From the NCBI GenBank assembly GCA_964567755.1, contig CAZMNW010000020.1, positions 7,401-71,400 on the forward strand: a DNA stretch of 64,000 nt, in the 5' to 3' direction. The notes under the pieces are model-generated. The model made no database searches, was not told the DNA's origin, and saw only the letters and a list, made by a program, of their open reading frames with translations. The stretch is from an uncultured bacterium (GTDB lineage Bacteria; Krumholzibacteriota; Krumholzibacteriia; G020349025). This document shows, one piece after another, positions 28,369 through 53,300 of the stretch (position 1 is the stretch's first letter; each line of letters begins with the position of its first letter). The translations under genes and the position numbers were made by a program.

Positions 28369-28558
28369 CATGACTTGATTCCTCAATCCAAGAGGGGGTG
28401 AAGGGGAGGGATGCTTTTTCCTTCGGGGTCTCGACAGGTGAAGAGCGCCGTATTCATTATGCACTCCCGATGCTGTCCAGCAAGAACCGGTGCAACCCAG
28501 GCGCCCAGGGGGGAGAAGAAATGTGCAACTTGCCCCACGGGTAACGAAAGGAGGGAAG

Positions 28559-29037: not shown

Positions 29038-29401
29038 CGAGAATCCTCCTGCCCGTCCGGGCTGCTAAGACTCTCATAACACTTGGATCAGATTTCGGGG
29101 AGCACATCACCTCGACCTGCCGCTCAGTGGGCTTGACTCAGCTCCGGGGAGCTGATGGACCTCTCAGTCGATCTCTACACCCAAACCCATTGGAAGGTTG
29201 GTGTCCAACCCATGTTGGCAGAGAGGGCGCCCCGGGAAAGAAGGTCCAGAGAAACGCCATCAGAATGGTTGTTTTCATTGGACCCGTTCAGTGGGTTGAC
29301 ATGGAGGTCCTGGTGCGAAAATGATTTGACCTGCCGCCGCAACTGCCGCACCCTCGGTTGTATCTACGCTTCGACGGTTGCCGCAAGAATGGGGGACAGA
29401 G

Positions 29402-30799
29402 ATGAAAAGCCTGACTGGCCTAGTGTTGTTGCTGGCGCTAGTGGGGGCGTTGGGTTGGTCATGTAGTAAGGAGAGCCTACCGCCGGTAGCAGTAGAGGTA
29501 TCAGATGGTCCATCAAAGGGCGATCCCCCTGAAATGGACTACGTTGACCCACCGGAGTGCGACCCGGATTGTGGGACGAATCAGTACTGGGTATGGGTAG
29601 ATAGTGCAATTGTGCAGCAAGCAGATACGAGCGGTGCTGAATGGGATTCTCTGCGCATCTTCGCTAAGGACTCCTTCAGCAGCAGCAGCACCCACCCTAG
29701 ACACGCGACACTCTGGAACAAAGATAGTGCGGCCGGAGCTTTGGCAATGGCAAAGGCCTTGGTCTCCATCCGCATGAGCCGGACGGGTGAAAGCCAAAAC
29801 TACCACGCGCAAGTGGTTGGGGCACTCGACCACCTAATGGCAGATTCACTGAATGGCCACGATTTGGACTGGGAGGATGAACAACTTTCATTGGCACGTA
29901 ACCTCCCCGCTTGGATCATCGCAGCAGACTACCTATTCGCTGCAGTTGGACCCAATCGCAGGGACGACTTCCGCGACCTCATAAGATCCCTAACATCAAA
30001 CGCGCTCTCAGATGACGAAACCGGCGATAGGGATGGGCGCTCACTCAAGGCTGACGTGCGCTATCGTGCCAACAATCGTTCTGCTTGGAGCATAGCAGCG
30101 TTGGCCTGTGCCGGGTCATATATCGGTGAGGGCTACGATGGTGGGCGGTTGGCGCTGGCAGCGAAGTGCTACAAAGGTTACGTCGGTGATCTCACTGGAT
30201 CATCGGCTGTGTATGTGTACAGGGATAGCGCTGGGGGCCAGAACGGGCTCACCTACACCGCGTGGGATTCTCTATACAGCGGCATGGCAAACAACTTCGC
30301 CCCAATAGCTATCCGGAACACAGCGACATTCCATTACGACGGCTGTACCGATGAGTTGTACACGCGCGACGTAAAGGGAATGATGACACAGGACATGAAC
30401 GAAGACGGAGAGAAGCCAACACAGCAGACGAATTGCTACTACGACGCCGGTAATAAGGCGCCGACGTACATCAAGAGCGCAATGGGCGCAGTTGCGATTG
30501 CGGCGTTTGTGTTGGGCAAGACCCCAGGTCACAGCTACCTGGTAATCTTCCAGCATGGTTATGGTGGTTCGAGCGGGGAAGGGTTACTAGCTGCAGCGGA
30601 GTTCTGGACGGAAGAGGAGGCCGCTGAGAATCTTGGTTCAACGCACCTTTGGGAGTTTGCCGCACACGAGAAGAGCTCATGGGTACCGTTCCTGGTGAAC
30701 GGGCTCACCAACGTGAATGAGATAACAGAGCCGTCGCAAGAGGGTAAAGCAGGGCTTCGTTACCTCGCCGGAACGAAGTGGCTTAAGAGCTATTTCTGA
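29402..30799 (+). CDS. lipoprotein, alginate-lyase/heparinase-like (polysaccharide lyase superfamily) candidate
   Basis: Lipobox 'LGWSC'. 'RANNRSAWSIAALACAG' resembles the AlgL 'NNHSYW(A)AW' motif. About 55% GC, lower than the background. Confidence 0.55.
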   Translation: MKSLTGLVLLLALVGALGWSCSKESLPPVAVEVSDGPSKGDPPEMDYVDPPECDPDCGTNQYWVWVDSAIVQQADTSGAEWDSLRIFAKDSFSSSSTHPRHATLWNKDSAAGALAMAKALVSIRMSRTGESQNYHAQVVGALDHLMADSLNGHDLDWEDEQLSLARNLPAWIIAADYLFAAVGPNRRDDFRDLIRSLTSNALSDDETGDRDGRSLKADVRYRANNRSAWSIAALACAGSYIGEGYDGGRLALAAKCYKGYVGDLTGSSAVYVYRDSAGGQNGLTYTAWDSLYSGMANNFAPIAIRNTATFHYDGCTDELYTRDVKGMMTQDMNEDGEKPTQQTNCYYDAGNKAPTYIKSAMGAVAIAAFVLGKTPGHSYLVIFQHGYGGSSGEGLLAAAEFWTEEEAAENLGSTHLWEFAAHEKSSWVPFLVNGLTNVNEITEPSQEGKAGLRYLAGTKWLKSYF

Positions 30800-31032
30800 G
30801 GAAAAGGCACCAGTGGGTGTACATCAAGTGGTTGTTGAGCATGGTCGATGTGAACCGCTGACAAGGTGGCAGCTGGGATACATCCGGAGTCCATCATGTT
30901 CGTCTACGGACCGGGAAAACGCGTAGGAATGTTTTTGACACATCGAGACTAGAATGCAGCTGCGATCCTCGCCCGTGGTTGTTGGCGCGCTCAGGGCGCC
31001 AACCTCGGGTCGAGAAACGGACGGAGAACTCG

Positions 31033-34725: not shown

Positions 34726-36381
34726 TTGGGATCTGGCACGAGCGGCACGGACAGATGGCGGCTCGCGGTGCTCCTGCTGGCAGCCGCGGGAGTGCTGATC
34801 ATTGGTTGGAAACTGCTGTGGTTCCTGACCGACGACTCCTTCATCACATTTCGTTACGTGAGCAACAGCGTTCGCGGTCACGGTTACGTGTGGAACCCGC
34901 CTCCCTTTCTCCCCGTCGAAGGTTACTCGAGCTTCCTCTGGGTGCTGATTCTGGACGGCGTTTGGCGCCTCACGGGATCGCCGCCGCCCGCGGTGGCGAA
35001 CTACCTGACGCTCGCGTGTTCGTTTCTCTCCCTCGCCCTCGCTGCGGTCCTGGTGCTCCGCCTGCGCTGGCGCGCGGATCTGGTTGCCTGGCGCTTCGTC
35101 TTCGCCGCCTTGGTGCTTTTGGGTCTCACCACCAACCGTACCTTTCTCACCTGGGCGAGCTCGGGGTTCGAGACGGCGCTGTTCAACCTCCTTGTCTTCG
35201 CGTGGCTCGCCCTCGGCGTCGGCGCGGGTGCCATGCGGCCGCGGCGCGTCGTCGCCTTGTCGGCTCTGGCTGCATGCTTGCACCTGGCCAGACCCGAAGG
35301 AGTTCTGTTCGCCGCGGCGACGATTGCCATGTTCACGCTCGCCCCCCGTGAGCTGGCGTGGTGGCGATCCCCGCGTGCTCTTGCTGCCTACACACCGCTG
35401 CTCTTGATTCCCCTCCACCTCCTGTGGCGCCACTCGTTCTACGGCGAGTGGTTGCCGAATACGTACTACGCCAAGGTCGTCGGTGTCTGGCCCGCGAGCG
35501 GCGCGCGCTATGCGCTATCCTTTGTACTCGAGTACGCTCTGTGGTTTTCGCTCGTGGTGATGCTCGTCGCAGCAGCGACGCAAAAGCGCGTGGCCACGGT
35601 GCGCTCGGCTTCGCAGTCAGTGGCAGCGTGGATCTGTGTCCTCACCCTCGTGGCGCACGTCTCGTATTACACCTTCATCGTCGGTGGCGATCATTTCGAG
35701 TATCGCGTCTACAGTCACTTGCTCGCGCCTGGCTTCGTGGGTCTGGTGTGGCTCGCGAACAAATCACGGCTGCGTGGTCGCGTGGTTGCGACCCTCCTCG
35801 CCGCCCAAATTGCCCTGGCGCTGCCGCTGCCATGGAGCCATTGGGCGCTCAGCCGCCACCTCGAGACACGCGAAACGACACGGCGCATGCGCGTGGCGGT
35901 GGCGCCGCATTGGCCACCTTTGTTGCGGGAGTACGTACGACTTTTCGATGGTCTGCAAGCCTGGCTGATCGAGCACTGGGTGTGCGTGCGACACCAAGAG
36001 CACAAGGTGAACCAAGAGTATCTCGTGACCCTCTACCCATCGCGCGCCGAAGGCGAGCAGTTGCCGGCTGCAGACTTTCCCATCCACGCCTTCCAGGCCG
36101 TCGGCGTGGCATCGTGGACATTGCCGCACGTCAACGTCATCGACCTCCTGGGGCTCAACGATTGGGTCATCGCCCGGAGCCCAGTGGATGCGACACGATT
36201 GCGCGGCATGGCGCACGAACGCCGGGCGCCCGATGGATACGCTGACTGCTTCGAGCCCAATGTGTTTCTTGCGCCCGGTGGAGGTGTGCGGATCACGATG
36301 CGCCCGGTCCCACTCACCGCTGCCGCGATCGAGTCTTGCGAACGTGATTGGTCGGCCCGGGTGCGAGATTCTGGTCGCTGA
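34726..36381 (+). CDS. polytopic membrane protein, GT-C-fold glycosyltransferase-like
   Basis: About 12 predicted TM helices. First loop carries 'LTDDSFITFRY' (a DD motif as in GT-C ArnT/PMT). Start is ambiguous (TTG at 34726 or GTG at 34768). Confidence 0.5.
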   Translation: MGSGTSGTDRWRLAVLLLAAAGVLIIGWKLLWFLTDDSFITFRYVSNSVRGHGYVWNPPPFLPVEGYSSFLWVLILDGVWRLTGSPPPAVANYLTLACSFLSLALAAVLVLRLRWRADLVAWRFVFAALVLLGLTTNRTFLTWASSGFETALFNLLVFAWLALGVGAGAMRPRRVVALSALAACLHLARPEGVLFAAATIAMFTLAPRELAWWRSPRALAAYTPLLLIPLHLLWRHSFYGEWLPNTYYAKVVGVWPASGARYALSFVLEYALWFSLVVMLVAAATQKRVATVRSASQSVAAWICVLTLVAHVSYYTFIVGGDHFEYRVYSHLLAPGFVGLVWLANKSRLRGRVVATLLAAQIALALPLPWSHWALSRHLETRETTRRMRVAVAPHWPPLLREYVRLFDGLQAWLIEHWVCVRHQEHKVNQEYLVTLYPSRAEGEQLPAADFPIHAFQAVGVASWTLPHVNVIDLLGLNDWVIARSPVDATRLRGMAHERRAPDGYADCFEPNVFLAPGGGVRITMRPVPLTAAAIESCERDWSARVRDSGR

Positions 36382-36390
36382 GTGCGGGGA

Positions 36391-37251
36391 TCACGCGCCG
36401 GCGAACACGCGGGCATGTTCGGCGGCGAACTGCGCGAACGTCCGTGCCGGCCTACCGGTCACGTCTTCGATTACGCGCGTCGTCGCCGACGCATGACCGG
36501 CGGCGAAGATGCCATAGAGCCCGACGAGGGTGTCGGCCAGCCACGCCGGCATGCCGCCGGCGAGTAGGAACTTTTCGGCATCGCTCGGGGACACGTCGAC
36601 GTACGTGACCGCGCGTCCCGTTGCCTCTCCAATGCGTGCGGCGATGTCGTGAAAGGAGAGCGCCTCGGGGCCGGTGATGTCGTAGGCCTTGCCTTCGTGG
36701 CCGCTGCGCGTCAAAACACAGGCCGCGACGGCAGCGATGTCGCGTGTATCCACGAGACCGATGCGGCCGTCGCGCATGGGGGCGTGAATCGCGCCGCGTG
36801 CGGCGATGCTGGCGGCGAAGCCGAGCGTGTTCTGCATGAAGTAGTGCGGCCGAAGGTGCGTCCACGCCATGCCGGACTGTTCGATTTGCTTTTCGGTCTG
36901 TCCGTGCCAGCGCGCGAGCGACAGCGATGCGTCCAGCCCGGCGCCGAGCACCGAGAGCTTGACCACGTGGCGGACACCGGCGCGCTGGGCGGCATCGACC
37001 GCATGACCTTGTTGCTCGACCTGTCGCGGATCCACTGGCGTGAGGAGAAAGAGATGATCCACGCCGTCCAACGCCGGAACGAGTGTCTCCGGATGATCGA
37101 GATCGCCGACAGCGATCTCCACGCCAGGAAGTCGAAGTGTGGCCGCCTTGCCGGCATCGCGAACGAACGCGCGCACGGGGACGCCTGCGGCCGCCAGCGC
37201 CCGCACGACCGCGCTGCCCGTGGTTCCAGTTGCACCGGTGACGAGAATCAC
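36391..37251 (-). CDS. NmrA-like / atypical SDR NAD(P)-binding oxidoreductase
   Basis: 'KVILVTGATGTTGSAV' Rossmann fold. GTG start with GGAGGG 6 nt upstream. The ORF-track N-terminal 34 aa were discarded. Confidence 0.8.
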   Translation of the reverse strand: MILVTGATGTTGSAVVRALAAAGVPVRAFVRDAGKAATLRLPGVEIAVGDLDHPETLVPALDGVDHLFLLTPVDPRQVEQQGHAVDAAQRAGVRHVVKLSVLGAGLDASLSLARWHGQTEKQIEQSGMAWTHLRPHYFMQNTLGFAASIAARGAIHAPMRDGRIGLVDTRDIAAVAACVLTRSGHEGKAYDITGPEALSFHDIAARIGEATGRAVTYVDVSPSDAEKFLLAGGMPAWLADTLVGLYGIFAAGHASATTRVIEDVTGRPARTFAQFAAEHARVFAGA

Positions 37252-37815
37252 CTTCGGCCCTCCTGCGACGCTGGACGGTGGACTCTCGCATTCGTGGACT
37301 CGACGAGGGTAGCTAATTTCACCCGCGCGCCGCAACGTGCACCGACAGGCCATCCCGTGTCGTGAATCGCTGTAAGCGGAGGACAGGAGAGATGAAAGCG
37401 GCCGCGTGTGTTGCTGCTCGGCTGCGGCCTGTGTCGGTCAACGCTGTCTCCTGACCAGAATCGTGGCCGGTCAGCCAGCGAACCTCGAGTCCGGTGAGCG
37501 TCTTCCCCACGACGGGGCTTTTCGCTCCGAGCTCGCGATGCGATGCCTATCCTCTGAGTTCCGGACGATTCTCCTTCTCTCCGTGGTCGATCCTCGACCA
37601 GTGGTCGCTCCGAAAAGCTACGAGTCGTGCGTTTGGAAAGGTGTGCCGGCAGTTTGCTGGGGCAAATGTCCCAACGGGCATGCGCCTTGCCGCGCGAAAG
37701 TGACAGGAGATGTCAGGCGGCCGTGAGTCTGGCCGTACATCCCGCCGCGCGCGTCCTCAAGAGTCCGAGAATCTGCGCGCTGCGGGGACCGCGCTCGAAA
37801 CTGCCGGAGAGTCGC

Positions 37816-40800
37816 ATGAACTGGACGCGATGCTGCCACCTCGGTGCCTGGCTGCTGGTGGCTGGAGTGGGCGTCACGCAGCCGAGTCACGCGCACGAGG
37901 TGCCCGGGAGCGCTCTGCAGCTGTTCGCCTATCAGACGGAATCGGCACCGGCACCCATCGACGGGAACATCGCGCCGGATGGACAAGAAGGCAAGTGGCG
38001 CAGTGCCTACGTGCGCAGCATCCGTTTTTCCAGCGCCGACGGAACCATCGTCAAGGATGGAACGCTGCTCATCACCAGCGATGCCGACTACCTCTACTTG
38101 GGAGTCGGCTTCAACTCGCAGTCGGCTGGCAACGTCAACTACGCGCGAGTCTACTTCGATCAGAACCACGACCACGTTCTGGATGGCAGTGCGTCGGTTC
38201 CCGGAGAATACTTTGTGCAGGTCCAGGGATCGAGTCCCTCCACCGTGACGCACGGTGGCTGGTTCGGTACGTCGGGCTGGCAGAACTATGCAGTCTCCCC
38301 GGCGGGGTTCGAAGCATCGGCAGAAAAACACGGCACCGGGAATCCAAACACCTGGAACTTCGAGATCAAGCTTCCCTTGCAAGCAGGCACCGGGGGCGGC
38401 GGTGAGAGCTTTCTGAACGTCGCGCCGGAGGCGGAGGTCGGCCTCCTGGTCGAGGTCAACGATGCCTCGAACGGCGTACTCTACTGGCAGCCGACCGGAC
38501 GCAATCCCCAGGACCCGTCGACGTGGGGCGAGATCCAGCTCGGGGTTCCCAACCCGTCGCGAGACGTCGCGGGAAGCATTTCCCTGGGACACGAGCCGAT
38601 CATCGACGGCAGCGTCACCAACGATCTGGCCTGGCGGCACTACACGTCGTCAGTGCGGCAGGTGCAGTTCACCAACTACAACGGCGACTTCATCTCCGGG
38701 CGGCTCTACGCGAAGTCGAACGCCAGCGACGTCTATGTTGCTCTCGTCCTGGATGGACGTCCCGCCGTCGCCGGAGACCGGCTGCGAGTCTTCTTCGACT
38801 ACGAAACAGCGTCGGGCGGTGATCTGGATTACATCCTGACCAATACTTCCGAGAATGGAGCGAGTCTCATCTACACCGGTGCGGGGACTGGAACCCTGAA
38901 CGACACGCACTTCGAGGACACGCCGGCCTGGGCAGCCGATGCCGTCGATGGCAGCGGCGCCGTGGGGCACAGCGGCGCGGACTACGAGTTCGAGTTCCGC
39001 GTGCCGCTGGCCGGGGTGGGCGCCGCGGACCTGCAGGTGGCGTTGGGAGCCCGGCTGGGGATGAACCTGGAGTTCACCGACGTCGGGACGGGTGAATCCT
39101 ACTGGTGGGTCTCGGCCGCGAACTCGCCCTACCAGAAGATGCGCGTCGATGCCATTTCCTTCACGGCGCTGGGATGGCTGCGCCTGCAAACAGGTGCGCC
39201 TGTGATCCAGCCCGTCTATCCCCGTGACAACGACGAGGTTTCGGGGCACTTCCCGTTCATGATCTACTCCACGTCGGCGACCGGGGATGCCGGCATCGTT
39301 GCGACGGAGTTTTCCGACGACCTCGGCGCTACGTGGCAAACACTGGAGCGCACCGACGAGAGCGGCGTGTGGACCCGCGTGTGGAACACGACGGTGTTGA
39401 CCGACGGCCCGCGGGAGATCCGCATTCGCGCCACCGACACATCGGACCTCGTGGCGACCGCAGTGCTCCAGGTGACCGTCGACAACCGAGGCGGTGTCTC
39501 GCTCGAGGTTCCGACGCTGGTCGTGAATGCGCCTGTGGCAGGCGCTTACGTCTCGGGAGTCATCCCGGTGACATTCACCGCCACACCGGCGCCGGGCCGG
39601 ACGCTCCTGGACACGGAAATCAACATCGACGGGGGAGCCTGGATCGCGGCATCGAGCCCCTTCGCTTGGGACACGCGGCTCGGGAGCGATGGCAGCCACA
39701 TCTTCCGGCTGCGAGCTCTGCAGAGTGACAGTCTCTACGGGTACTCGCAGCCGCGCCTGGTCGTTGCCGACAACACGGCGCCGGAGCTGGAGGCGCTCGC
39801 TGTGGCCTATCCGGCAACGCAATCCGCCGCGAAGACGGGAGATCTGATCCGGGTGACGGCGCTGGTGCGCGACGCGCGCGCCGGTCTCGATGCCGCAACA
39901 GTGCTCCTGAACTCGAATGCCGTGGATGGTGCCACCCACGTCATGGTGGACGACGGCAGCCAAGGGGATGACATTGCCGGCGACCACGTCTACTCCTACG
40001 CCGTGACCGTGACGAGCACCGTGTCGGGACCGGTAGCCGTGTCGCTCGGCGCCGGCGATGTTCTGGGCAACTCCGCCGCACCCATCGTCGTGGACGTGCT
40101 CTTGGACAACGACATGCCCGTGCACGTGTCCACCGTCGCCGGGGACGCTGATCGCATCTACAAGAACACGGACACCGTGAAGTTGACAACGGCGTGGGAC
40201 GGTGCGGGATACTGGGTCACGGCGGATTTCGGCAATCTGGACAGCGGTTATGTCAAGGGCGCCGAGCAAGTCGTGGACAACGAAGATGGCTCTTACACGG
40301 TCACTTATGCCATCAGCTTCGAGAACACCGTGGCCGATGGCAGCAGCATCGCCATCCCCATCACCGCTCACGACCGCACGGGGAACGGGCCCGTGACCGA
40401 CGCCGCGTTCGTCGTCGAGCTCGACAACACGGTGCCTGCCTTCGAAACGGTCGACACGGCGCAAGACAACTACACCGATGGTGAAACGGTGATTCTGATC
40501 GTGGTCATGGACGATTCGACCTATCGGGTGTGGTCGGACTTCAGCGCCATCGACAGCAACTACTCGGCGGGCGACGAGACGGTGACGCGCGCGGGGAATG
40601 CGTACACGGTGAGCTACACGCTGTTCCCGGATGCGCAGAACACCACGCCCGATGGCTCTTATGCGCTTCCCGTGTCTGCCGAGGACATTGCCGGCAACCG
40701 CGCCTCGCTCAGCACGAGCATCGAACTGGACAACACGCGGGAGGCAGTCACCATCCTGCGGCCCCGGGACGGAGATCTGATCACCGGCAACGTCGTGATC

Positions 40801-42120
40801 GACGTCACCTCGGCGGACGATACGCGCTTTGTCCGCTTCCAGGTTTCTCCCGACGGTGGGGTCAACTGGTACAACCTGGAGGGCACGCAGCAGCCGTTCG
40901 ACTACACCCAGGACAGCGATGCCACCGACGGCTGGAGGCAGATCTGGCGTACTGCCGAGGATGCCCTGCCGGATGGCGTGGACTATCACATTCGCGTGCT
41001 GGCGTACGACGAGCAGGATCCTGTGCCGCACTTCATCGGCCAAGACGAGGTGGGAGGTGGACTGGTTGTCGACAATACGCCACCGACGCTCAGCATCGAG
41101 GTCGTGCCGCGGCCGTCGCTCGGACCACTGCGCGGCGAGGTGTATACGGCGGAGATCCTGCTCCGCGGCAGCTATTTCGACCTGCCCGACAGCAATCGCG
41201 TCGTCGGCATCACGATTTTCCACCGCAATGCCGATGGGGACGATGTCAACGACAGCCCCATCGCCGTTCCGGCCAGCGGCTACGAGTTCAGCCGTCGTAT
41301 GCGGATGCTGGCGGGGATCAACTACATCACGGTGACGGTGTTCGACGAGGCCGGTCTCAGCACCTCGCAAACGGCGGAGCTGACCTACATGCCTCCGGAG
41401 AACGTGGTGACCGTGGGGCCCGCAGGGGGCGAGGTGCGTTCACCGGATGGCACGACATTGACGATTCCAGCCGGTGCGCTTCTGCGTGACGAGGATATCT
41501 CGGTGACGCGCGTGCCGCCGGACGAGCTGCTGCCGGCAGCGGATCCAAGGGTGACGCTGCTCAAGGTAGCGCACGCCTTCGATCCCGATGGGCTGGTGTT
41601 CCACCGCGCCGCGGGGCTCGTCCTGACCTACACCGACGCCGACCTCGACCCGGACCAGAACGGAACACCCGACTGGAGCGAGGCCGAGCTGGAAGTGTTC
41701 TTCTGGGATGGCTTCCGCTGGGTGCGAACGGAGCCGCCCCAACGCGATGCTGCCGCCAACACGTTGACGTTAAAGGTGAATCACTTGGCGACGTTCGACA
41801 TCGGGGTGATGACGGCTGGGGGACCCAGCGCCAACGTGTACTGGACACGCAACCCGCTCACGCCGGAAGAGGGGAGCACCTGCGTGTACGAACTGCCGGC
41901 GGAAGGACAGCTGTCGCTCAAGATCTACGACATGACCGGGCATCTGGTGCGGACGGTCGTGGAGCGGGAGCCGGTCGCCATAGCGGGTTCCGTGCGCTGG
42001 GATGGGCTCAACGATTTCGACCGCTACGTCGGCAGCGGTGTCTATGTCTTCATCTTCGATTTCACCGGCAACGACGGAAGCAAAGTCAGTCTCCGCAAGC
42101 CGCTGGGGGTCGTGAAATGA
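37816..42120 (+). CDS. large secreted multi-domain protein (CBM-like N-terminus, multiple Ig-like/BIG domains) with a FlgD-Ig/T9SS-type C-terminal sorting domain
   Basis: Signal peptide 'MNWTRCCHLGAWLLVAGVGVTQPSHA'. Repeated 'VVDNTxP' Ig-like linkers. C-terminus 'LSLKIYDMTGHLVRTVV...VRWDGLND...GSGVYVFIF' is CTD-like. Confidence 0.8.
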   Translation: MNWTRCCHLGAWLLVAGVGVTQPSHAHEVPGSALQLFAYQTESAPAPIDGNIAPDGQEGKWRSAYVRSIRFSSADGTIVKDGTLLITSDADYLYLGVGFNSQSAGNVNYARVYFDQNHDHVLDGSASVPGEYFVQVQGSSPSTVTHGGWFGTSGWQNYAVSPAGFEASAEKHGTGNPNTWNFEIKLPLQAGTGGGGESFLNVAPEAEVGLLVEVNDASNGVLYWQPTGRNPQDPSTWGEIQLGVPNPSRDVAGSISLGHEPIIDGSVTNDLAWRHYTSSVRQVQFTNYNGDFISGRLYAKSNASDVYVALVLDGRPAVAGDRLRVFFDYETASGGDLDYILTNTSENGASLIYTGAGTGTLNDTHFEDTPAWAADAVDGSGAVGHSGADYEFEFRVPLAGVGAADLQVALGARLGMNLEFTDVGTGESYWWVSAANSPYQKMRVDAISFTALGWLRLQTGAPVIQPVYPRDNDEVSGHFPFMIYSTSATGDAGIVATEFSDDLGATWQTLERTDESGVWTRVWNTTVLTDGPREIRIRATDTSDLVATAVLQVTVDNRGGVSLEVPTLVVNAPVAGAYVSGVIPVTFTATPAPGRTLLDTEINIDGGAWIAASSPFAWDTRLGSDGSHIFRLRALQSDSLYGYSQPRLVVADNTAPELEALAVAYPATQSAAKTGDLIRVTALVRDARAGLDAATVLLNSNAVDGATHVMVDDGSQGDDIAGDHVYSYAVTVTSTVSGPVAVSLGAGDVLGNSAAPIVVDVLLDNDMPVHVSTVAGDADRIYKNTDTVKLTTAWDGAGYWVTADFGNLDSGYVKGAEQVVDNEDGSYTVTYAISFENTVADGSSIAIPITAHDRTGNGPVTDAAFVVELDNTVPAFETVDTAQDNYTDGETVILIVVMDDSTYRVWSDFSAIDSNYSAGDETVTRAGNAYTVSYTLFPDAQNTTPDGSYALPVSAEDIAGNRASLSTSIELDNTREAVTILRPRDGDLITGNVVIDVTSADDTRFVRFQVSPDGGVNWYNLEGTQQPFDYTQDSDATDGWRQIWRTAEDALPDGVDYHIRVLAYDEQDPVPHFIGQDEVGGGLVVDNTPPTLSIEVVPRPSLGPLRGEVYTAEILLRGSYFDLPDSNRVVGITIFHRNADGDDVNDSPIAVPASGYEFSRRMRMLAGINYITVTVFDEAGLSTSQTAELTYMPPENVVTVGPAGGEVRSPDGTTLTIPAGALLRDEDISVTRVPPDELLPAADPRVTLLKVAHAFDPDGLVFHRAAGLVLTYTDADLDPDQNGTPDWSEAELEVFFWDGFRWVRTEPPQRDAAANTLTLKVNHLATFDIGVMTAGGPSANVYWTRNPLTPEEGSTCVYELPAEGQLSLKIYDMTGHLVRTVVEREPVAIAGSVRWDGLNDFDRYVGSGVYVFIFDFTGNDGSKVSLRKPLGVVK

Positions 42121-43073
42121 GCCGGATCCAGCCGCGACAGGGAAGCATGGGTTGGAACCACCTCGTCGCCATCGCAGTGGGTGCTGCCAGCCTCTGCGCC
42201 GCCATGCCAGCTGCGCACGGGGATACGAGCACTCTCGTCATTGGCGCACGCGCACAGGGCATGGGGTCAGCGTTCAGTGCCGTCGGCGACGATGCGACAG
42301 CGACCTTCTGGAATCCGGCCGGTTTGACCCAGGTGCGCCGGACGGAGCTGAACTACAGCCACTGGCTGCTCTCGGACGTGTCCGATGTCAGCGTCGATTT
42401 CGCCGCCGTGAGCGTGCCATTCGCGGCCGGCGGGCTCGATGCGACAGTGGGGCTCAGCTTTGCCCGTGTTGGAGCGGACTTGGAGGAAGGACCGGCCGCG
42501 ACCACTCAGGGCATCTCGGACAGCCGCTTCTCCCTTTCCGGGGGGCTGCGTGTTGTCCGCTTCCTCTCGGTCGGGATGTCGCTCAATCGTCTCGAAGTCG
42601 ACAGCGATCGTGGAAGCGGCGCCGGTTTCGGCTTTGATGCGGCGCTCTTGCTGCAGCCCTTCGAGGAGTACGATGTCCGCGTCGCCGCCGTGGGTAAGAA
42701 CCTCTCGGGCGACGTGAAGAACGAGGACCTGAACCAGTCCTGGCGTCTGGGGTTGGCGGGCTCCTTGTGGAAGAGCCGCGTGCTCCTCTCGGCAGATGCG
42801 AACCTGCGCCGCGACATCAATCGGCATGATGGCGTGACGGGTCTCTACTACGGCGGCATCGAAATCACGCCTCACGAGGTGTTTTCCCTGCGTGGTGGCT
42901 TCGGCAGTGAATCACAGTACGGACTTGGTTTCGGCGTGCGGCATCGGGGTTTTGCCTTCGACTACGCGTATTCCGATGACGACGAGGTGCTGGGGAGCCA
43001 GCACCGGGTTTCCGTTTCCCTGGCGTTCGGTTCTGGTCGCCTCGGCCAGCCAGCCAAGCCCGAAGGATCGTGA
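42117..43073 (+). CDS. FadL-superfamily outer-membrane beta-barrel (PorQ/PorV-like)
   Basis: Signal peptide. 'GMGSAFSAVGDDATATFWNPAGL' is the FadL/PorV-type N-terminal motif. Amphipathic beta strands. ATG overlaps the upstream stop (ATGA). Confidence 0.6.
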   Translation: MSRIQPRQGSMGWNHLVAIAVGAASLCAAMPAAHGDTSTLVIGARAQGMGSAFSAVGDDATATFWNPAGLTQVRRTELNYSHWLLSDVSDVSVDFAAVSVPFAAGGLDATVGLSFARVGADLEEGPAATTQGISDSRFSLSGGLRVVRFLSVGMSLNRLEVDSDRGSGAGFGFDAALLLQPFEEYDVRVAAVGKNLSGDVKNEDLNQSWRLGLAGSLWKSRVLLSADANLRRDINRHDGVTGLYYGGIEITPHEVFSLRGGFGSESQYGLGFGVRHRGFAFDYAYSDDDEVLGSQHRVSVSLAFGSGRLGQPAKPEGS

Positions 43074-43144
43074 GCACTGCCGGATCCCGCAGCGAAATTC
43101 ACCGCACTCGCTCTCGTCGTGGCGGAGGATGACCGTAACCTGGA

Positions 43145-44284
43145 TCACTCGAAGCGGAAGACGCGGGTCGCGAGGAAGAAGAGGATCACGGTCGCGGCGC
43201 ACATGCCGAGCACGTGGGGCAGGACGGCGGCCGGCGCGGCGCCGAAGCTGACGAGCTGGTGCAGGCCGTCCATGGCCCAGCCGGTGGGCAGGAAGAGCTG
43301 CAGCTTCTGCATCCATTTCGGTGTGATCTCGATCGGCCACCAGCAGCCACCGAGCGCGGCCAGCACGTTGGTGGCGACGACACCGATGGCGATGGCTTGG
43401 CCTTCGCTGCGAGCGAGGCTGCCGAGCAGAATGCCGAGCGTCGCCGTGAGCGTGGCATAGGCGAGCAGCAACACGACGACCATCCACAAGTTCGGACCCC
43501 AGTTCATCTTGAAGAGCACGGTGCCGGCCAGCATGCCGAAGGCGATCTGCACCACGCCGATCCCCATCTTGCCGCTCCACTTGCCGAGCACGATCGCGGG
43601 CCGGGAGATCGGCGTGTAGGCGAGCCGGCGCAGGAGACCCTGCCGGCGTTCGGTGAACAACAGCACCGCGCCGCTGGTGCAGAGAATCGAGAGCACGAAC
43701 ATCACGAGAATCCCAGGAATCGCCTGCTCGAAACCGGTGGGCACGTGCCGGCGCTTGCCGGCAGGCGCGACCTCGACCTGCAGAGTCCGCGGCAAAGAAT
43801 CGAGGTGGGCAAGGCTCGCAGGTGTCGGCGCGAGACCTTGCTCGCCGGTCACGATGACGTCGGCAAGCAGTGTGTACGCGGCGCGCCCGATGCGCACGAG
43901 GTCGTAGTCGTTGCCGAGCCCACTTTCCTCGCGGACGAAGCGCAGTTTCACCGGCTTGCCGGCCAGGACGGAGTCGGTGAAGCCGGACGGGATGCGCAGG
44001 CGGCGCGACGCGGCGTCGAACTCGGCCATCGTTTCTGGCCGCACGATTTCGTAGCGCCGGTCTTCGAGCCGGTGCTGCAGCTGATCGCCGAGGAAGCCGG
44101 TGTCGCCGTCCGTCCACAGCGCCAAACGGTCCGGATGGCCGCCACGGCTGCCGAAATTCGACGTCACGGTGCCGATGAAATAGAAGAACACGATCGGCAT
44201 CACGAACATCCAGCCGATGGCCTCGCGCTCGCGCAGCATGTACTGCACGTCCTTGCGTCCGAGAAACCACACGTGACGCAGCAT
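43145..44284 (-). CDS. ABC-2 type transporter permease
   Basis: 379 aa. One N-terminal TM, a roughly 150-aa extracytoplasmic loop, then five TM helices (ABC2_membrane_3/YhgE-like). Start is 2 nt after the upstream permease stop. Confidence 0.8.
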   Translation of the reverse strand: MLRHVWFLGRKDVQYMLREREAIGWMFVMPIVFFYFIGTVTSNFGSRGGHPDRLALWTDGDTGFLGDQLQHRLEDRRYEIVRPETMAEFDAASRRLRIPSGFTDSVLAGKPVKLRFVREESGLGNDYDLVRIGRAAYTLLADVIVTGEQGLAPTPASLAHLDSLPRTLQVEVAPAGKRRHVPTGFEQAIPGILVMFVLSILCTSGAVLLFTERRQGLLRRLAYTPISRPAIVLGKWSGKMGIGVVQIAFGMLAGTVLFKMNWGPNLWMVVVLLLAYATLTATLGILLGSLARSEGQAIAIGVVATNVLAALGGCWWPIEITPKWMQKLQLFLPTGWAMDGLHQLVSFGAAPAAVLPHVLGMCAATVILFFLATRVFRFE

Positions 44285-44286
44285 CT

Positions 44287-45540
44287 TCACCCCTGGGCGA
44301 AGCCCCGCCGCAACCGGCGGGCACTGACGAGGAACAACACGGTGCCGACGGCAACCAACGCGGCGATGGCAGATCCGAGCGCCGGCGGCCGGACCGTGCC
44401 GTTCAAGATGTTTTCGAGTTGCTGCACCGACCAGCCGTTCGGCGTGTGACGGCCGATGGTCGCCATCCATTCCGGCATGGCTTCGAAAGGAAAGAAGCTG
44501 CCACCGATCATCATGAGCGGGAAGATGAGCCCCATGCTCACGATGTTCCCGGCGCGCTGGGTGCGCACGTGTAACTGGATCGTCATCATCGCGAGCAGGA
44601 GGACGGCCCCGGAGAACATCACCCACAGCGTGGCGAGCGGCAGCGCTGCCGGTGCGAGGCGGAAGTAGAGGAACGCGATGGTGAGCGACACGAGCCCGGT
44701 GGCGCCCATCAACGCGGTGCCGTAGATCGCCTTGCCGCCGAGGAACTCCATCACCGACCGCGGCGACACCACGAGCCGGCGCAAGGTCATCTGGCTGCGC
44801 TCGCGCCAAAGATCCTCGCTCACACCTTGGGCCATGAACAGCAGCGACATGTACAGGAGACCAGGCAGGAAGTAGAGCGCGAAGCTCTTGGGCGGTCCGG
44901 CGGTTTTCTCCTTTTCCTCTTCGTCCGTCGTCGCTTCGAGCTGGACAACGAGCGGGGAGAGATAGCTGCTGACGCGGCCGGCCAGCTCGTTGATCCGCAC
45001 GCTGGAGGACATGATCTGCGCATTGGGGAAGGTGTCGAGGCCGGGGCCCGGGCCACCGGCGAAAGCGCGCAGGTCTTCGCCCAGCACGCGATGCAGGTAG
45101 AACGCGGCGTCGGCGAAAATCGCCAGGCTCTCTTCGACGATGCCGGGGAGAATCCGTTGCGCCGGATTGGTCACTAGACGCAGCGTGCACGGTTCTTCGC
45201 GCAGCACGGCATCGGAGAACCCGGCGGGGATGACCAGGAGCCCGGTTGCTTCGCCCCGTTCGACGCGCTTGCGCCCGGCTTCGAGCTCCACGACCTCGGC
45301 GCGGATGAAGCTGCCGGCAGCTTCTTGACTCAATCCACCGAGGAGGAAATTGCTGAGCACGCTATCGTCCTGATCCACGACCAAGAGATGCGCCTGTGGG
45401 CGCGGTCCGCCTCTTCCGCCGGTGGAAGCGACGACGAGTGTGCCGATGACGAGCGGGATGCCGAGCCAGAGCACGAACTCGACCGGAGTGCGGCGCTGCC
45501 GTTGAAAATCTTTGAGCGCCGTGCGCCACAGGAAAGTCAT
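44287..45540 (-). CDS. ABC-2 type transporter permease
   Basis: 417 aa with the same architecture as its downstream paralog. Confidence 0.8.
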   Translation of the reverse strand: MTFLWRTALKDFQRQRRTPVEFVLWLGIPLVIGTLVVASTGGRGGPRPQAHLLVVDQDDSVLSNFLLGGLSQEAAGSFIRAEVVELEAGRKRVERGEATGLLVIPAGFSDAVLREEPCTLRLVTNPAQRILPGIVEESLAIFADAAFYLHRVLGEDLRAFAGGPGPGLDTFPNAQIMSSSVRINELAGRVSSYLSPLVVQLEATTDEEEKEKTAGPPKSFALYFLPGLLYMSLLFMAQGVSEDLWRERSQMTLRRLVVSPRSVMEFLGGKAIYGTALMGATGLVSLTIAFLYFRLAPAALPLATLWVMFSGAVLLLAMMTIQLHVRTQRAGNIVSMGLIFPLMMIGGSFFPFEAMPEWMATIGRHTPNGWSVQQLENILNGTVRPPALGSAIAALVAVGTVLFLVSARRLRRGFAQG

Positions 45541-45565
45541 TCCGTTGCTCCCAGCCGGCGAGCTG

Positions 45566-46495
45566 TTACTCGCGCAGCTCCTTGCCGGTGAGCTTGATGA
45601 AGAGGCTCTCGAGATTGGGTTGCGTGACCGTGGTCTCGTACAGTTCGGCTCCCGCGGCCGTGAGCGCCTGCAGCGTCGCCGGCAGTTTGCGCGTCGCCTC
45701 GCGCATCGCCAAGGTCACCGAGTCGGTTTCCACCTGTACGATCTCGACGCCGTCGAGCCGGGTGAGCGCCTCGCGCACCGCAGCGGGCTCGAAACGCCCG
45801 GACAAGCGCAGCAGATCGCGTTCCCCGACCTTGGCGCGCAGCTCGACGAGCGTGCCCATGGCGATGATGCGTCCATGATCGATGATCGCCAAGCGATCGC
45901 AGAGGCTCTCGGCTTCTTCCATGTAATGAGTCGTGTACAGGACGCAGGTGCCCTGGCGGGCCTGGTCACGCACGAGATCCAGGAGACGCACGCGACTCTG
46001 CGGATCGACTCCCACCGTGGGTTCGTCGAGGAGCAATGCCTGCGGCGTGTGCACGAGAGCGCAACCGAAGTTGAGCCGGCGTTTCATGCCGCCGCTGAAG
46101 CGCTTGACCGGCTCCTTGGCGCGGTCGTGCAGCTCGATGATCTCGAGCACTTCCTGCACGCGCTTCTTGAGGGTCCCGCCGCGCAATCCATACGCTGCGC
46201 CCCAGTAGCTGAGATTTTCGCGCGCGGAGAGTTCTTCGTAGAGTGCCAGCTCTTGCGGCACGACACCCAGCTTTTCGCGCGACGCGCGGCCGTCGGTCAC
46301 GACATCGTGTCCGAAGACACGCACGCGGCCGGCATCGGGCCGGAGCAAGCCCGAAACGCAACCGATGGCGGTGGTCTTGCCGGCACCGTTCGGCCCGAGC
46401 AGGCCGAAAATCGCACCGGGCTCGGCCTGGAAACTGACATCGTCGACGGCGGTGATCGAGCCGTACTGCTTGCGCAGGCCCAGAACCTCGATCAT
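45566..46495 (-). CDS. ABC transporter ATP-binding protein
   Basis: Walker A 'GPNGAGKTT'. Signature 'FSGGMKRRL'. Walker B 'LLLDEPT'. Confidence 0.9.
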   Translation of the reverse strand: MIEVLGLRKQYGSITAVDDVSFQAEPGAIFGLLGPNGAGKTTAIGCVSGLLRPDAGRVRVFGHDVVTDGRASREKLGVVPQELALYEELSARENLSYWGAAYGLRGGTLKKRVQEVLEIIELHDRAKEPVKRFSGGMKRRLNFGCALVHTPQALLLDEPTVGVDPQSRVRLLDLVRDQARQGTCVLYTTHYMEEAESLCDRLAIIDHGRIIAMGTLVELRAKVGERDLLRLSGRFEPAAVREALTRLDGVEIVQVETDSVTLAMREATRKLPATLQALTAAGAELYETTVTQPNLESLFIKLTGKELRE

Positions 46496-47278: not shown

Positions 47279-47794
47279 ATGCACCGGCGCTTTCAGGAGC
47301 TCGTGGAGATGTACCAGGACCGCATCTACCGGCTGGCGCGCTACAGCGTCGGGAACCGCGAGGAAGCCGAGGACATCGCGCAGGAGGTTCTGGTCCGCCT
47401 CTGGCGTCACCTGGACCGGATCGAGCCTGCCGGGATCTGGCCATGGCTCGTGCGGGTGACTCGGAACGCCAGCATCGACGCGCTGCGCCGGCGCGGTAGC
47501 TATCGAGCGGTCGTCGTGTCGGATCCTGAAGATCAATCGACGCAATGGGTTGCAAGTCCAGGTCGGAGCCCTGCCGCAGATTCCGAGGCCGGCGAGTTCC
47601 AGCGCCACCTCGAAGAGGCACTGCGCGAGCTGGCCGAGCCGTATCGGAGCATCGTGATCCTGCGTGAGATCGAGCAACGCAAGTACGACGAGATCGCGAC
47701 CGCGCTCGAGCTGCCGCTCAACACCGTCAAGGTGTACCTGCACCGGGGGCGGCGGATGTTGCGGGCCAAACTTCGGGAGTTCGCCGAGCCATGA
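47279..47794 (+). CDS. RNA polymerase sigma-70 factor, ECF subfamily
   Basis: Region 2 'EDIAQEVLVRLW'. Region 4 'YDEIATALELPLNTVKVYLHRGRRML'. Confidence 0.9.
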   Translation: MHRRFQELVEMYQDRIYRLARYSVGNREEAEDIAQEVLVRLWRHLDRIEPAGIWPWLVRVTRNASIDALRRRGSYRAVVVSDPEDQSTQWVASPGRSPAADSEAGEFQRHLEEALRELAEPYRSIVILREIEQRKYDEIATALELPLNTVKVYLHRGRRMLRAKLREFAEP

Positions 47795-48372
47795 CGCAAC
47801 CCAGGGAATCACGCTCCACGCCGTTGTCGTGCGCGCGCGCTCAGGTGCTGCTCGAGATGGCATTGGACCAGGAGCTCGACCCCAGGCGCGAAGCGCAGTT
47901 TCGCACCCATCTCGCCGGCTGTGCTGCCTGCCGTGAAGAGTTCGAGTCGGCGCAACGCGTCCAGGGAGTTCTACGTCAGCTCGGGACGACCATATGTCCC
48001 GAAACGGTCGCGGTGGCAGTACGCGCACGTATCGAAGCTGAGGACAGTCGTCGCGAGGGCTGGATGACGGCCTTGCGTCGAAAATGGGAAGCCGCCTGGC
48101 GCCCGACTCTGGGCGTGGTCGGCGTGGCCGCGACTGCGTTGGTCATCGCGTTGCTGGCGCGCCCACCAGCCCGACCTGCGGGCGAAGCGGCGGCGGTGGC
48201 GCAGGCGGAAGAAGAAGTGCGGTGGGCCCTGGCATACGTCGCGGAGGTCACGCGACGGGCCAGCGACGAGGCGTTGGACCGCACGCTCGGAGACATCGTG
48301 GGCAACGTGATCGGCCGACAAGTGGTCGTCCCGGTCACGGATGCCGTCGGCAAATCACTGAAGGAGGAATGA
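47791..48372 (+). CDS. zinc-binding anti-sigma factor (ZAS-type)
   Basis: 'HLAGCAAC' is an HxxxCxxC motif, with a central TM helix. ATGA overlap with the sigma gene. Confidence 0.7.
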   Translation: MTQPRESRSTPLSCARAQVLLEMALDQELDPRREAQFRTHLAGCAACREEFESAQRVQGVLRQLGTTICPETVAVAVRARIEAEDSRREGWMTALRRKWEAAWRPTLGVVGVAATALVIALLARPPARPAGEAAAVAQAEEEVRWALAYVAEVTRRASDEALDRTLGDIVGNVIGRQVVVPVTDAVGKSLKEE

Positions 48373-50342: not shown

Positions 50343-53300
50343 CTACTTGACGACGACGATCTTGCGCGTGATCGTGTGCCCTTCGGAGCGCAGGCGCAGG
50401 AAGTAGACGCCGGAGTCGAGACTGTGGCCGCGATCGGTGGTTGCATTCCAGTCGATCTGCAACCTGCCGGGGGGACGAGTCTCGTGCAGCAACTGGCGCA
50501 CGAGCCGCCCGCGCGCATCGAAGATGCTCATTTCTACCGTGGCGCGTCGGTACAGCATGTATCGCAGGAGCGTGTGATTGCGCAACGGATTGGGGAACAC
50601 CTCGAGACGTTCGGCGAAGCGCAGGGTGTCATCGATGCGTGTCGAGCGAATCTCCACCGCCACGGCCGCCCAATCGACGGGGGAAGAGAAGCTGCCGCTC
50701 GTCGTGTGATCGCCGGCATCGACCGCGCGATCCTGCACCTCGATGGATGCAGTCGCCTGCGGCGTGCCGCTCGCGGCGCGGGCGCGCAGGAACGTGCCGT
50801 CGGTGCGCACGTGATCGCGATCGCGGAGCGCGACGGCGCGATAAACGATGCCGCCGTCGGTGAGCGTGGTGAGGAACCAGTCGTAGCGAGCGCTCTCGCC
50901 GCCGTCTTGGCAGCTCGCATCGAGCCCGCTGGTGTTCGCCGCCGTCACGCTGCCGAGCGGATCCTGGGGGTCGGCGCCGGAATAGCGTGAAACGGCGAGG
51001 ACCGCATGCTCGACCGGGGCGGCGAAAACGGCGGCAATCGACCCCGGAGTTGGTGCCCCACGCGCCATCCACAGCTCCAACCCGGTCTCGCCCTGCGCAC
51101 CGCATTGCGTTTTCACGCGTGTCCATTGCAAGCTCATGCCTTGCAGGCCCATGACCTGTCCCAAGGGTTGGCTCGAGATCGCGGCGAGATAGAGATCGCC
51201 GGCCGCGGCAGAGAGCGCGCTCTCGGTCTGCACCTGGATGGCGAAGGTCGCGGCACCCGTTGTGCTTTCACGGTAGGTGACGCCGCGTCCCTCGACGCCG
51301 ATGCGGACGGCCGCGTCATGCATGGCGGTGCCGTCGCTGGCGCGATAGGTGAAGCCATCGGTGCCGGTAAAGCCGGGGTCGGGTGTGTAAGTGAACGAGC
51401 CGTCGTCGTGGAGATCCAGCTGCCCGTACTGCGGTGCGTCGAGCACGAAAGCGGACAACGTGTCGCCATCGGCGTCCGTGTCGTTGACCAGCAGACCGGG
51501 GGCGTGAGGCTGCAGACTGGCGCCGGCGACGACGAAAAAGGAGTCCGAACGCGCAATGGGTGCATCGTTCACGCGCGACACCTGCAGCGAGACTGCCCCG
51601 TGCCGCACCGCGCCGGCAGGATCGGAGACCGCGTAGACGAACAGGTCGCTGCCCGAATAGTCGGGAAGCGGAATGTAGACGAAGGAGCCGTCGCGACGGA
51701 GCGTGACGCCGCCATGCGCGGCCCCGCTCACCAGCGCCGCAGTCATCGCATCGCCCTCGACATCGAGATCGTTGCCGAGCAGGCCGGGAGCATCGACGCG
51801 CAACGTGTCATCCTCGGTGACGGTGAAATCGTCCGCGCCGGGGAGCGGCGCATCGTTCACTGCGGCGATGGCGAGCGTGACTTGTGTCGTCGCGAATGCA
51901 CCCGCGGCGTCGCGTGTGGTGTAGACGAAGCCATCGCTGCCATGGAAATCGAGCGCTGGCATGTAGGTGAACGAGCCATCGCTGCGCAAGGTCAGCGTCC
52001 CGTGCGCCACCATGGTTTGCAGCTCGGTCTGCAACGGCTCGCCATCCACATCGCTGTCGTTGGCCAGCACGCCCGGCGTCCCGATGTCGAGCGGCATGTC
52101 TTCGTCGAGGCCATACGAATCCTGCAACGCCACCGGTGGATCGTTGACCGGCAGAACCATGAGGGTGACCTGCGCGTTCGCACTGCGTCCGGTGCCATCG
52201 TCGGCGGCGTAGTCGAAGCTGTCGCTGCCATGCCAATCGGCGTCCGGAACGTAGCGGAACGCCCCATTCTCGCCGAGCAGCAACGTGCCGTGCGCGGGGG
52301 AACGAACGATCTGCGCGCGCAGAGCATCGCCGTCGGCGTCTTGGTCGTTGGCAAGAACGCCTGGCGCATCGATCATCCACTCGCTGTCTTCGGCGCCGTT
52401 CCAGGTGTCTGCGAGCGGGCGTGGGACATCTGGGATCGCACCGACCTGGATGTGCACCGTGCCCGTGGCGATGCCGCCGGCGTTGTCGTCGACGATGTAG
52501 GTGAAGCTGTCGGGTCCGTGGGCGTCGGGCGCGGGTGTGTAGACGAAGCCGCCTTCAGCGCGCAGCTGCAGCGTTCCGTGCAAGGGCGGCGTGCCCGGAC
52601 GCACGGTCAATGCATCGCCATCCACATCCTGATCGTTGGCAAGCAAACCAGGAGCCGGCAGATCGAGCGCCCTGTCCTCGTCGGTACCGAACGTATCGTC
52701 GAGGGCCGTTGGCGCATCGTTCACCGGGGCGACCGTGAGGGTCACGGTCCCCACGGCGTTGCCGCCATGGCCGTCGTCGGCGATGTAGGTGAAGTGGTCG
52801 GCACCATGATAATCGGCTGATGGCGCATAGGTGAATGCACCGTTCGGTTCGAGTCGAAGCGTGCCGTGCTCGGGGGCCGCCTCGAGCCGCAGCGAAATGG
52901 CATCGCCATCCACATCGAGATCGTTGGCGAGCAGTCCCGGAGCTTCGACAACGAGGACGCCATCCTCGTCGACACTCAGCGCATCGTTCCCGGCGCTGGG
53001 TGCGTCCTGGATGGGATGCACTGTGAGCGCCACGGTCTCGATGTCGCTGCCGCCGTTGCCGTCGCGCACTTCGATGGTGAACGCATCGGTGCCATGGAAA
53101 TTCACCTGTGGCACGAAGGTGAAACCACCGTCGGCACTGACCGTGACGGCACCGTGCGCCGCGGGAGTGGCGAGAGACGCCACGAGCGCATCCCCATCCG
53201 CGTCAGTTGCGCCGACCAGAACGCCCAAAGAAGCGATCGTGAGCCCGACATCTTCGTCGGTGGCGTACGCGCTCGCGGCCGCCGTCGGTGCGTCGTTGAG

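Follow-up and report, generated by a model that had tools for sequence, protein, structure and literature searches.

Substrates of the type IX protein secretion system (T9SS), which is established in the Fibrobacterota–Chlorobiota–Bacteroidota (FCB) group (PMC11205867), are recognised at the translocon by a cognate carrier barrel (PMC10994853). A gap of 75 bp separates the gene porU from porV, which follows it, and PorV holds PorU by its retained C-terminal sorting domain (CTD) (PMC5445135, PMC10202324). Type B CTD substrates are encoded beside their PorP/SprF carriers, which anchor them (PMC9143113, PMC12618676); in pairs such as SprB–SprF and PG1035–PorP each substrate has a cognate barrel of its own, without which it is not secreted and which afterwards anchors it (PMC9143113, PMC12618676, PMC10994853). 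PorZ is held at the surface by its uncleaved CTD on the PorV paralogue PorQ (PMC10202324), and one gene of this pair is PG1604 in Porphyromonas gingivalis (PMC5445135). Here we describe a two-gene cassette in a 64,000-nucleotide stretch of DNA from an uncultured bacterium (contig CAZMNW010000020.1, positions 7,401 to 71,400; hereafter the window), in which the gene for a 1434-amino-acid secreted protein with a T9SS-type CTD (the cargo) directly precedes the gene for an outer-membrane barrel protein of the PorV/PorQ family (the barrel). We consider it probable, though well short of established, that the cargo retains its CTD and has the barrel as its cognate carrier and anchor, the cassette combining a T9SS substrate with its own carrier.

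The arrangement resembles PorU–PorV (PG0026–PG0027 in P. gingivalis, Fjoh_1556–Fjoh_1555 in Flavobacterium johnsoniae) in that a large CTD surface protein is encoded directly upstream of a PorV-family 14-strand barrel. It differs in that the cargo has no C25 peptidase or sortase domain, the barrel has much shorter loops and a far lower score on the PorV equivalog model, and the pair is not a core component but rare. With the type B pairs it shares a substrate gene that adjoins the gene of a dedicated outer-membrane barrel, and the cargo CTD, like 41 of the 54 barrel-adjacent CTDs in the survey reported below, gives weak CHU_C matches; here, however, the barrel belongs to the PorV/PorQ family, the cargo CTD aligns with type A/FlgD_ig-like tails and the organism is probably outside Bacteroidota. 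From PorZ–PorQ, whose genes are not adjacent in P. gingivalis, PG1604 and PG0602 being non-consecutive locus numbers, the pair is distinguished by a cargo that lacks the PorZ propeller. The barrel has the 14 strands, N-terminal hatch and NPA motif of the FadL/TodX channels for hydrocarbons and long-chain fatty acids, but its sequence affinity to them is much weaker, and its genomic partner is a CTD protein rather than genes of fatty-acid metabolism. Unlike the known pairs, it couples a barrel of the PorV/PorQ family to a cargo that is not part of the secretion machinery and ends in a type-A-like variant CTD. The initial annotation described PorV/PorQ barrels and their cargo as normally encoded separately in Bacteroidota; porU–porV and the type B substrates beside PorP/SprF are precedents for adjacency in that phylum. 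Our literature search found no description of PorV- or PorQ-like barrels beside cargo genes outside Bacteroidota, and none of a T9SS in Krumholzibacteriota or Elusimicrobia.

The stop codon of the cargo gene and the first ATG of the barrel gene overlap as ATGA, as initially annotated and confirmed here from the open reading frames (ORFs). The cargo is identical to the public gene call P0121, whereas the public call for the barrel, P0001, has 308 amino acids and begins at a second ATG (42147), 26 nucleotides past the cargo stop; no public name is on record for either protein. The first ATG yields the more typical signal peptide, with a positive n-region (R3, R7). Because the ATGA overlap recurs at the orthologous loci L003 and L088, and because only the overlapping start supplies a signal peptide at L088, we take this start as probable, short of certain. 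Gaps of 5–65 nucleotides separate the genes of the other orthologous pairs; tight linkage is kept and the overlap itself is not, which leaves the translational coupling that had been claimed as a possibility only. ATGA overlaps are ordinary operon features. The gene upstream is divergent and the operon downstream convergent (Table 1), and the cargo and barrel genes therefore form a tight two-gene unit. A promoter and terminator scan of positions 36300–43400 returned none above shuffle expectation. Elsewhere in the window, genes for a sigma factor of the extracytoplasmic function (ECF) type (47279–47794) and a zf-HC2 anti-sigma factor (47791–48372), on the plus strand, also overlap as ATGA.

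By its sequence affinities the barrel is a divergent subfamily of the PorV/PorQ superfamily. The NCBIfam model NF033709 (PorV_fam) matches it at E 6.7e-23 over nearly its whole length (residues 42–304 against 11–326 of 326 model positions), in support of the PorV/PorQ-like identity first proposed; the Pfam FadL model Toluene_X (PF03349), by comparison, reaches 14.2 bits (E 0.016, cut-off 29.7) and covers the N-terminal motif only. A partial match to NCBIfam PorVQ2 (50 bits) and one to Pfam UPF0164 (~14 bits) were also found, and Pfam and NCBIfam gave no match to the PorP/SprF family at E≤0.1. A profile of the wider family (alignment A2, 65 sequences) retrieved PorV (6h3i_F) at 4e-40 and FadL at about 1e-4. 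An exhaustive HMMER search returned 14,056 related barrel clusters (50% identity) at E≤1e-3, 45 of them at E≤1e-30.

The predicted fold agrees with this placement. An AlphaFold2 (AF2) model built on 65 family sequences (predicted local distance difference test (pLDDT) score 88.4) has 14 strands after a helical N-terminal hatch, the topology expected of the barrel that had been proposed, with the NPA motif in the hatch. Foldseek ranked F. johnsoniae PorV first among PDB entries (8gl6_F and 6h3i_F, TMq 0.71 and 0.67), followed by FadL and TodX (TMq 0.64–0.67). The N-terminal motif reported in the initial annotation was located at residues 48–70 of the 318-residue ORF; W65, N66, P67 and A68 are invariant among orthologues (alignment A1), and the N and P of the motif are invariant throughout A2. 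The mature N terminus, DTS(N/T)LVIGARAQG, is kept in all orthologues (A1). A generic FadL transporter was considered as an identity and rejected on the hidden Markov model (HMM) scores and the A2 profile. Many PorV/PorQ-like barrels found in the searches (P0020–P0117 and P0252–P0344) are fused to TPR, OmpA or LysM domains, with FlgD_ig in P0023, and reach 1361 amino acids.

The cargo tail, at the extreme C terminus of a predicted Sec-exported protein, is by sequence homologous to bona fide CTDs. It is 42% identical to the canonical Por_Secre_tail CTD of a 1065-amino-acid protein encoded in the same window (tblastn E 6.6e-14) and matches our local CTD HMM at E 1.9e-18, results that uphold its initial designation as a T9SS-type CTD; its last ~90 residues are also homologous to the tail of a 3293-amino-acid protein of the window. 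Its scores lie under the cut-offs for type A tails (TIGR04183, 14.7 bits against 23; FlgD_ig, 19.8–21.2 against 27) and under that for type B tails, to which TIGR04131 also belongs (CHU_C, PF13585, 13.9–18.3 against 27), and PF18962 is not among its listed matches. The best PDB match is the PorU CTD (6za2_A, E 0.096). Aligned to canonical tails, the domain keeps the NPxxP, IYD..G.LV, W.G and GVY.Y motifs, and the cargo family has the signature YWT-x-NP[FL]xPxEG ... KP[LI]GV[VI]K. At the position of the NPFNP box the cargo reads RNPLTPEEG and its relatives NPFxPxEG; the box, which the initial annotation described as lacking, is altered and not absent. Nor is the domain degenerate, as the initial annotation had it: this conserved variant is the best-conserved segment of the cargo across phyla (51–52% identity, against 17–48% elsewhere).

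The cargo and barrel genes are conserved as a pair and have diversified together. Their adjacency is kept in 10/10 loci that carry the pair, with differing flanking genes, so that the pairing holds in relatives. Barrel orthologues of 50–89% identity, each with a cargo orthologue (57–70%) directly upstream, occur at loci L003, L004 (fragmented), L005, L006, L007 and L088. Among 185,579 GTDB species genomes there is no close barrel orthologue; the three best matches, at 33–36% identity, come from Candidatus Edwardsbacteria, a Fibrobacteria metagenome-assembled genome (MAG) and an uncultured Chlorobiaceae MAG. These three barrels, at loci L008–L010, are each preceded by a cargo homologue of 34–37% identity; the similarity takes in the tail and extends over up to 800–940 residues, or 370 at the Fibrobacteria locus. 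The upstream proteins at these loci were the only cargo homologues found. The window barrel and the three GTDB barrels are mutual best matches (104–181 bits, against at most 105 to any other barrel); the barrel subfamily tracks the upstream cargo family. A word-index search recovered eight cargo-family proteins. P0127 (L089:696-5036), a 28%-identical homologue of the cargo Ig region, has at its end, where a CTD would be, a hydrophobic membrane anchor with an acidic tail, and no barrel gene lies downstream of it; it is a natural 'choice of anchor' contrast.

Gene order of this kind is not confined to the one family. We surveyed 80 GTDB loci with PorV/PorQ-family genes (L008–L087), 73 of them assessable, with the local CTD HMM, and found an ORF ending in a CTD directly before the barrel start, on the same strand, in 53 of the 73; about 6% of the other ORFs in these loci end in a CTD (odds ratio ~41). 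All 124 CTD-ending ORFs are on the barrel strand, against none of 484 minus-strand ORFs. Seven of the negatives have a CTD ORF 250–625 nucleotides upstream, leaving space for a small intervening ORF, one of which is present in several. The loci are labelled Ignavibacteria, Calditrichia, Elusimicrobia, Eisenbacteria, Gemmatimonadota, Cloacimonadota, Marinimicrobia, Poribacteria, Krumholzibacteriota and others, and this spread across many phyla replaces the earlier suggestion of an unusual, lineage-specific arrangement: the pair belongs, as a rare member, to a widespread class of CTD-plus-barrel cassettes, a class that we did not find described in the literature searched. In a Krumholzibacteriota MAG, for example, an FG-GAP protein with a CTD is followed by the barrel P0035.

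Beyond the weak type B matches to CHU_C noted above, FlgD_ig was found in 32 and Por_Secre_tail in 25 of the 54 barrel-adjacent tails scanned with Pfam. Matches to the canonical type A model were rarer in these tails (25/54) than in non-adjacent CTDs of the same loci (62/71, p 1e-6), which fits specialised, retained CTDs. The passengers are diverse, with 55 Pfam families; across the 49 other cassettes their domains are unrelated and the CTD alone is shared, and the association with a barrel therefore follows the CTD. None of the passengers examined is PorU. In Ignavibacteria, Calditrichia and Cloacimonadota loci a conserved protein of ~500 amino acids, CTD-ending in several, is encoded after the barrel. 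The barrels of L058, L068 and L079 (Balneolales, Chitinophagales) match the query over residues 43–121 only, at 48–49% identity, and have an M20 dipeptidase upstream and no CTD protein; they may correspond to NCBIfam 'PorV2' (NF052325).

The remainder of the cargo is modular. Its first N-terminal module gave a weak match to Pfam CBM9_1 (E 0.0042, 17.4 bits, cut-off 23.4), and a profile of the N-terminal region found no match among PDB sequences. An AF2 model of residues 26–565, made from a 5-sequence alignment, was poor (pLDDT 51); the best Foldseek matches of this low-confidence model were CBM9 (1i82_A), ethylbenzene dehydrogenase gamma (2ivf_C) and Nxr gamma (7b04_C). In the L008 homologue a VWA domain replaces the head. 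The Ig-like stalk has a weak choice_anch_X match at residues 710–734, and the L008 homologue has four copies of this domain (E 2.3e-35). For the domain before the CTD the evidence of a ZU5 fold is weak (profile A7 against the ZO-1 ZU5 structure 2kxr, E 0.012, and against ankyrin ZU5, E 0.1; Pfam ZU5, E 0.14); the domain lies within a C-terminal core that is kept across phyla (42–48% identity). Pfam scans found no catalytic domain in the cargo.

The window offers some context for a secretion system. Its GC content is ~65%, and the nearest named relatives of its SufB protein are from Candidatus Krumholzibacteria (92%), Latescibacterota (90%) and Eisenbacteria (84%); on the basis of this single gene the organism probably belongs to Krumholzibacteriota, in the FCB group and outside Bacteroidota, and the Bacteroidota frame of the initial annotation probably does not apply. 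Two further proteins in the window end in tails of the canonical type, one of 3293 amino acids, which looks like a giant T9SS adhesin, and that of 1065 amino acids already mentioned, whose passenger part matched no family. Neither has an adjoining barrel gene. By their sequences these proteins imply, indirectly, that the genome encodes a T9SS.

Our computations show how the two genes are arranged, to which family and fold the barrel belongs, that the CTD is homologous to known ones, that the pair is conserved and has co-diversified, and that the CTD-to-barrel order is general; use of a T9SS translocon, physical binding of the CTD by the barrel, retention of the CTD and carbohydrate binding by the head are inferred. 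We hypothesize that cargo and barrel would both cross the inner membrane through Sec and that the 14-strand PorV/PorQ-family barrel would insert into the outer membrane. The cargo, in which two tentatively CBM9-like modules are followed by an Ig-like stalk, then a ZU5-like domain and last the CTD, would be recognised at the T9SS translocon through its specialised CTD by the dedicated barrel and not by a general PorV. After translocation the CTD would stay uncleaved and bound to the barrel, displaying the cargo non-covalently at the surface, where it would probably act as a glycan-binding adhesin. By analogy, such a mode of display would parallel that of PorU on PorV, PorZ on PorQ and SprB on SprF.

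Several observations weigh against a dedicated carrier and anchor. Binding, retention and surface exposure are deduced rather than computed, and no T9SS core gene (SprA, PorK/L/M/N, PorU) lies within the 64-kb window. The barrel scores 81.8 bits on NF033709, just under the curated cut-off of 90, and falls far below the equivalog models for PorV (NF033710, 17.8 bits against 250) and PorQ (NF033711, 24.6 against 220). A profile of orthologues alone (A1) is roughly equidistant from PorV (E 0.03) and FadL (E 0.07), which leaves the curated HMM and intermediate sequences as the basis for assigning it to PorV/PorQ. In PorV, long extracellular loops bind the CTDs; the loops of the modelled barrel have at most 13 residues, so the PorV binding mode is not simply transferable. 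The CBM9-like character of the head, finally, is tentative, a weak hint from a model of low confidence.

Other explanations of the pair must be weighed against that of a dedicated carrier. The barrel could be a general PorV shuttle for all CTD substrates, with the upstream gene encoding an ordinary co-transcribed substrate or a PorU-like partner: porU–porV adjacency is the classical arrangement (PMC5445135), PorV is the top structural match of the barrel, and the best PDB match of the cargo CTD, with its E of 0.096, is that of PorU. A core component should be widespread, however, and the rarity of the pair (eight cargo-family proteins, ~45 barrel clusters at E≤1e-30 and no close orthologue in the GTDB genomes) counts against this explanation. 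It is also opposed by the score of 17.8 bits on a PorV model with a cut-off of 250, by barrel subfamilies that track the upstream protein family, and by the Krumholzibacteriota MAG with a different barrel and a different CTD protein, which points to several such barrels in the phylum; we judge it unlikely. A PorU-like sortase identity of the cargo was rejected, as it has no Peptidase_C25 or sortase domain and its NF033707 match covers the CTD only (1022–1084 of 1095). We think it highly improbable that the pair is an analogue of the PorZ–PorQ attachment complex, with a CBM-like head that binds surface glycan or lipopolysaccharide and presents it to a sortase, and a PorQ-like barrel as anchor. 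The cargo shows no homology to the PorZ beta-propeller (the NF052228 match is to the CTD only), a core function would not be expected of so rare a family, and the head is replaced by VWA in L008. In favour of the analogy, PorZ retains its CTD with PorQ as its anchor (PMC10202324, PMC8545088), carbohydrate binding is tentatively assigned to the cargo head, and of the two equivalog models that for PorQ gives the barrel a slightly higher score (24.6) than that for PorV (17.8).

Two further explanations do without the carrier role or without the T9SS. In one, the surface protein would capture a substrate, hydrophobic or polymeric, and the compound released from it would be imported by the FadL-like barrel. 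Such an uptake system would account for the FadL-superfamily fold with its NPA hatch motif, the weak Toluene_X match and the tentatively CBM9-like head, but it does not predict that the passengers of 49 other cassettes are unrelated with the CTD alone in common. The affinity of the barrel sequence to PorV/PorQ and not to FadL/TodX, the lack of a detected catalytic domain in the cargo and the CTD-less homologue without a barrel likewise make it very unlikely. In the other, the pair would serve export or anchoring independently of the T9SS, the barrel itself capturing the CTD and perhaps aiding translocation without SprA/PorKLMN. MAGs labelled Elusimicrobia, Poribacteria, Aerophobetes and Nitrospira, groups not known to carry a T9SS, do have cassettes of a CTD protein and a barrel; there are UPF0164 relatives in Treponema, and the 64-kb window contains no T9SS core genes. 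Yet a plugged 14-strand barrel is too narrow for a folded protein of 1434 amino acids, a general T9SS is implied by the canonical Por_Secre_tail proteins that the window encodes with no barrel beside them, the probable phylum, Krumholzibacteriota, is in the FCB group, where the T9SS is established (PMC11205867), and the taxonomic labels of MAGs can err. Independence from the T9SS thus seems to us quite unlikely.

A dedicated carrier and anchor remains our preferred reading, and it bears on T9SS research more widely. The idea of cognate carriers is recent in this field and has so far been shown only in Bacteroidota, with PorV as the carrier of type A CTDs and PorP/SprF as that of type B CTDs. 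The locus and the survey indicate that PorV/PorQ-family barrels outside the classical Bacteroidota are usually encoded right after one CTD protein. So many natural, co-varying pairs of CTD and barrel could reveal what makes carrier recognition and the retention of CTDs specific, and they provide a simple rule to predict from a genome whether a surface protein is held non-covalently or is cleaved and lipid-linked. The gain for the gene pair itself is modest: one rare accessory cassette with a probable adhesin. A broader proposal, in our view rather unlikely, is that the CTD-then-barrel cassette is the ancestral and general form of CTD-dependent surface display, reaching phyla beyond the known T9SS (MAGs labelled Elusimicrobia, Poribacteria, Aerophobetes and Saganbacteria), in some cases without SprA/PorKLMN, and that a system with one barrel for each cargo came first, from which the generalist PorV of Bacteroidota would be derived as a special case.

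Table 1. Features of the cargo and barrel genes, their neighbours and the other CTD proteins, in window coordinates.
Feature	Position	Strand	Description	Basis
Cargo gene	37816..42120	+	1434 amino acids; secreted multi-domain surface protein with T9SS-type CTD at its end	ORF and translation
Predicted cargo Sec signal peptide	37816..37896	+	Residues ~1-27, MNWTRCCHLGAWLLVAGVGVTQPSHA then HE	Read from sequence
Two tandem N-terminal beta-sandwich modules	37903..39495	+	Residues ~30-310 and 311-560; tentatively CBM9/DOMON-like	
Ig-like repeat stalk	39496..41535	+	Residues ~561-1240	Sub-threshold Pfam Big_7, Big_3_3, Big_13, Glucodextran_B
Pre-CTD domain	41536..41850	+	Residues ~1241-1345; tentatively ZU5-like	
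C-terminal sorting domain	41851..42117	+	Residues 1346-1434; variant T9SS type A / FlgD_ig-like	
Barrel gene	42117..43073	+	318 amino acids (308 from ATG 42147); PorV/PorQ-family outer-membrane protein	
Predicted barrel signal peptide	42117..42221	+	Residues 1-35, cleavage after AHG	Read from sequence and alignment A1
N-terminal hatch segment	42222..42341	+	FadL-superfamily NPA motif, GMGSAFSAVGDDATATFWNPAGL at 42258-42326; helical and non-barrel	AF2 model
14 transmembrane beta-strands	42342..43028	+	E66-75 to E283-294 (308-residue numbering)	DSSP on model m4b96bf68e422
Upstream neighbour	36391-37353	-	NmrA-like; divergent	
Downstream neighbours	43145-46495	-	Two ABC-2 permeases and an ATPase; convergent operon	
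3293-amino-acid protein	50343-60224	-	25 Big_9/cadherin-like repeats, CBM96 module, canonical-type FlgD_ig/Por_Secre_tail CTD	Por_Secre_tail, 26.6 bits against 27
1065-amino-acid protein	60415-63612	-	C-terminal Por_Secre_tail the only recognised part	TIGR04183, 36 bits, passes

Scans of the window for rRNA, tRNA and Rfam families gave no match. In the region 25477–30800, a fragment of an IS66-family transposase (25477–26301) adjoins a stretch of low GC content (0.567, against ~0.65) that may be foreign DNA; the large ORFs of this stretch, at 26584–28464 (minus strand) and 29378–30799 (plus strand), have no Pfam match. A SufS-like cysteine desulfurase (13931–15367, plus strand), the N-terminal extension of which overlaps sufD, reaches 687 bits, against a cut-off of 800, with the family 2A encapsulin cargo desulfurase model. 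An RtcB-family RNA ligase of 500 amino acids (1385–2887, minus strand) matches the C-terminal part (578–961) of the model for intein-containing RtcB with 666 bits.

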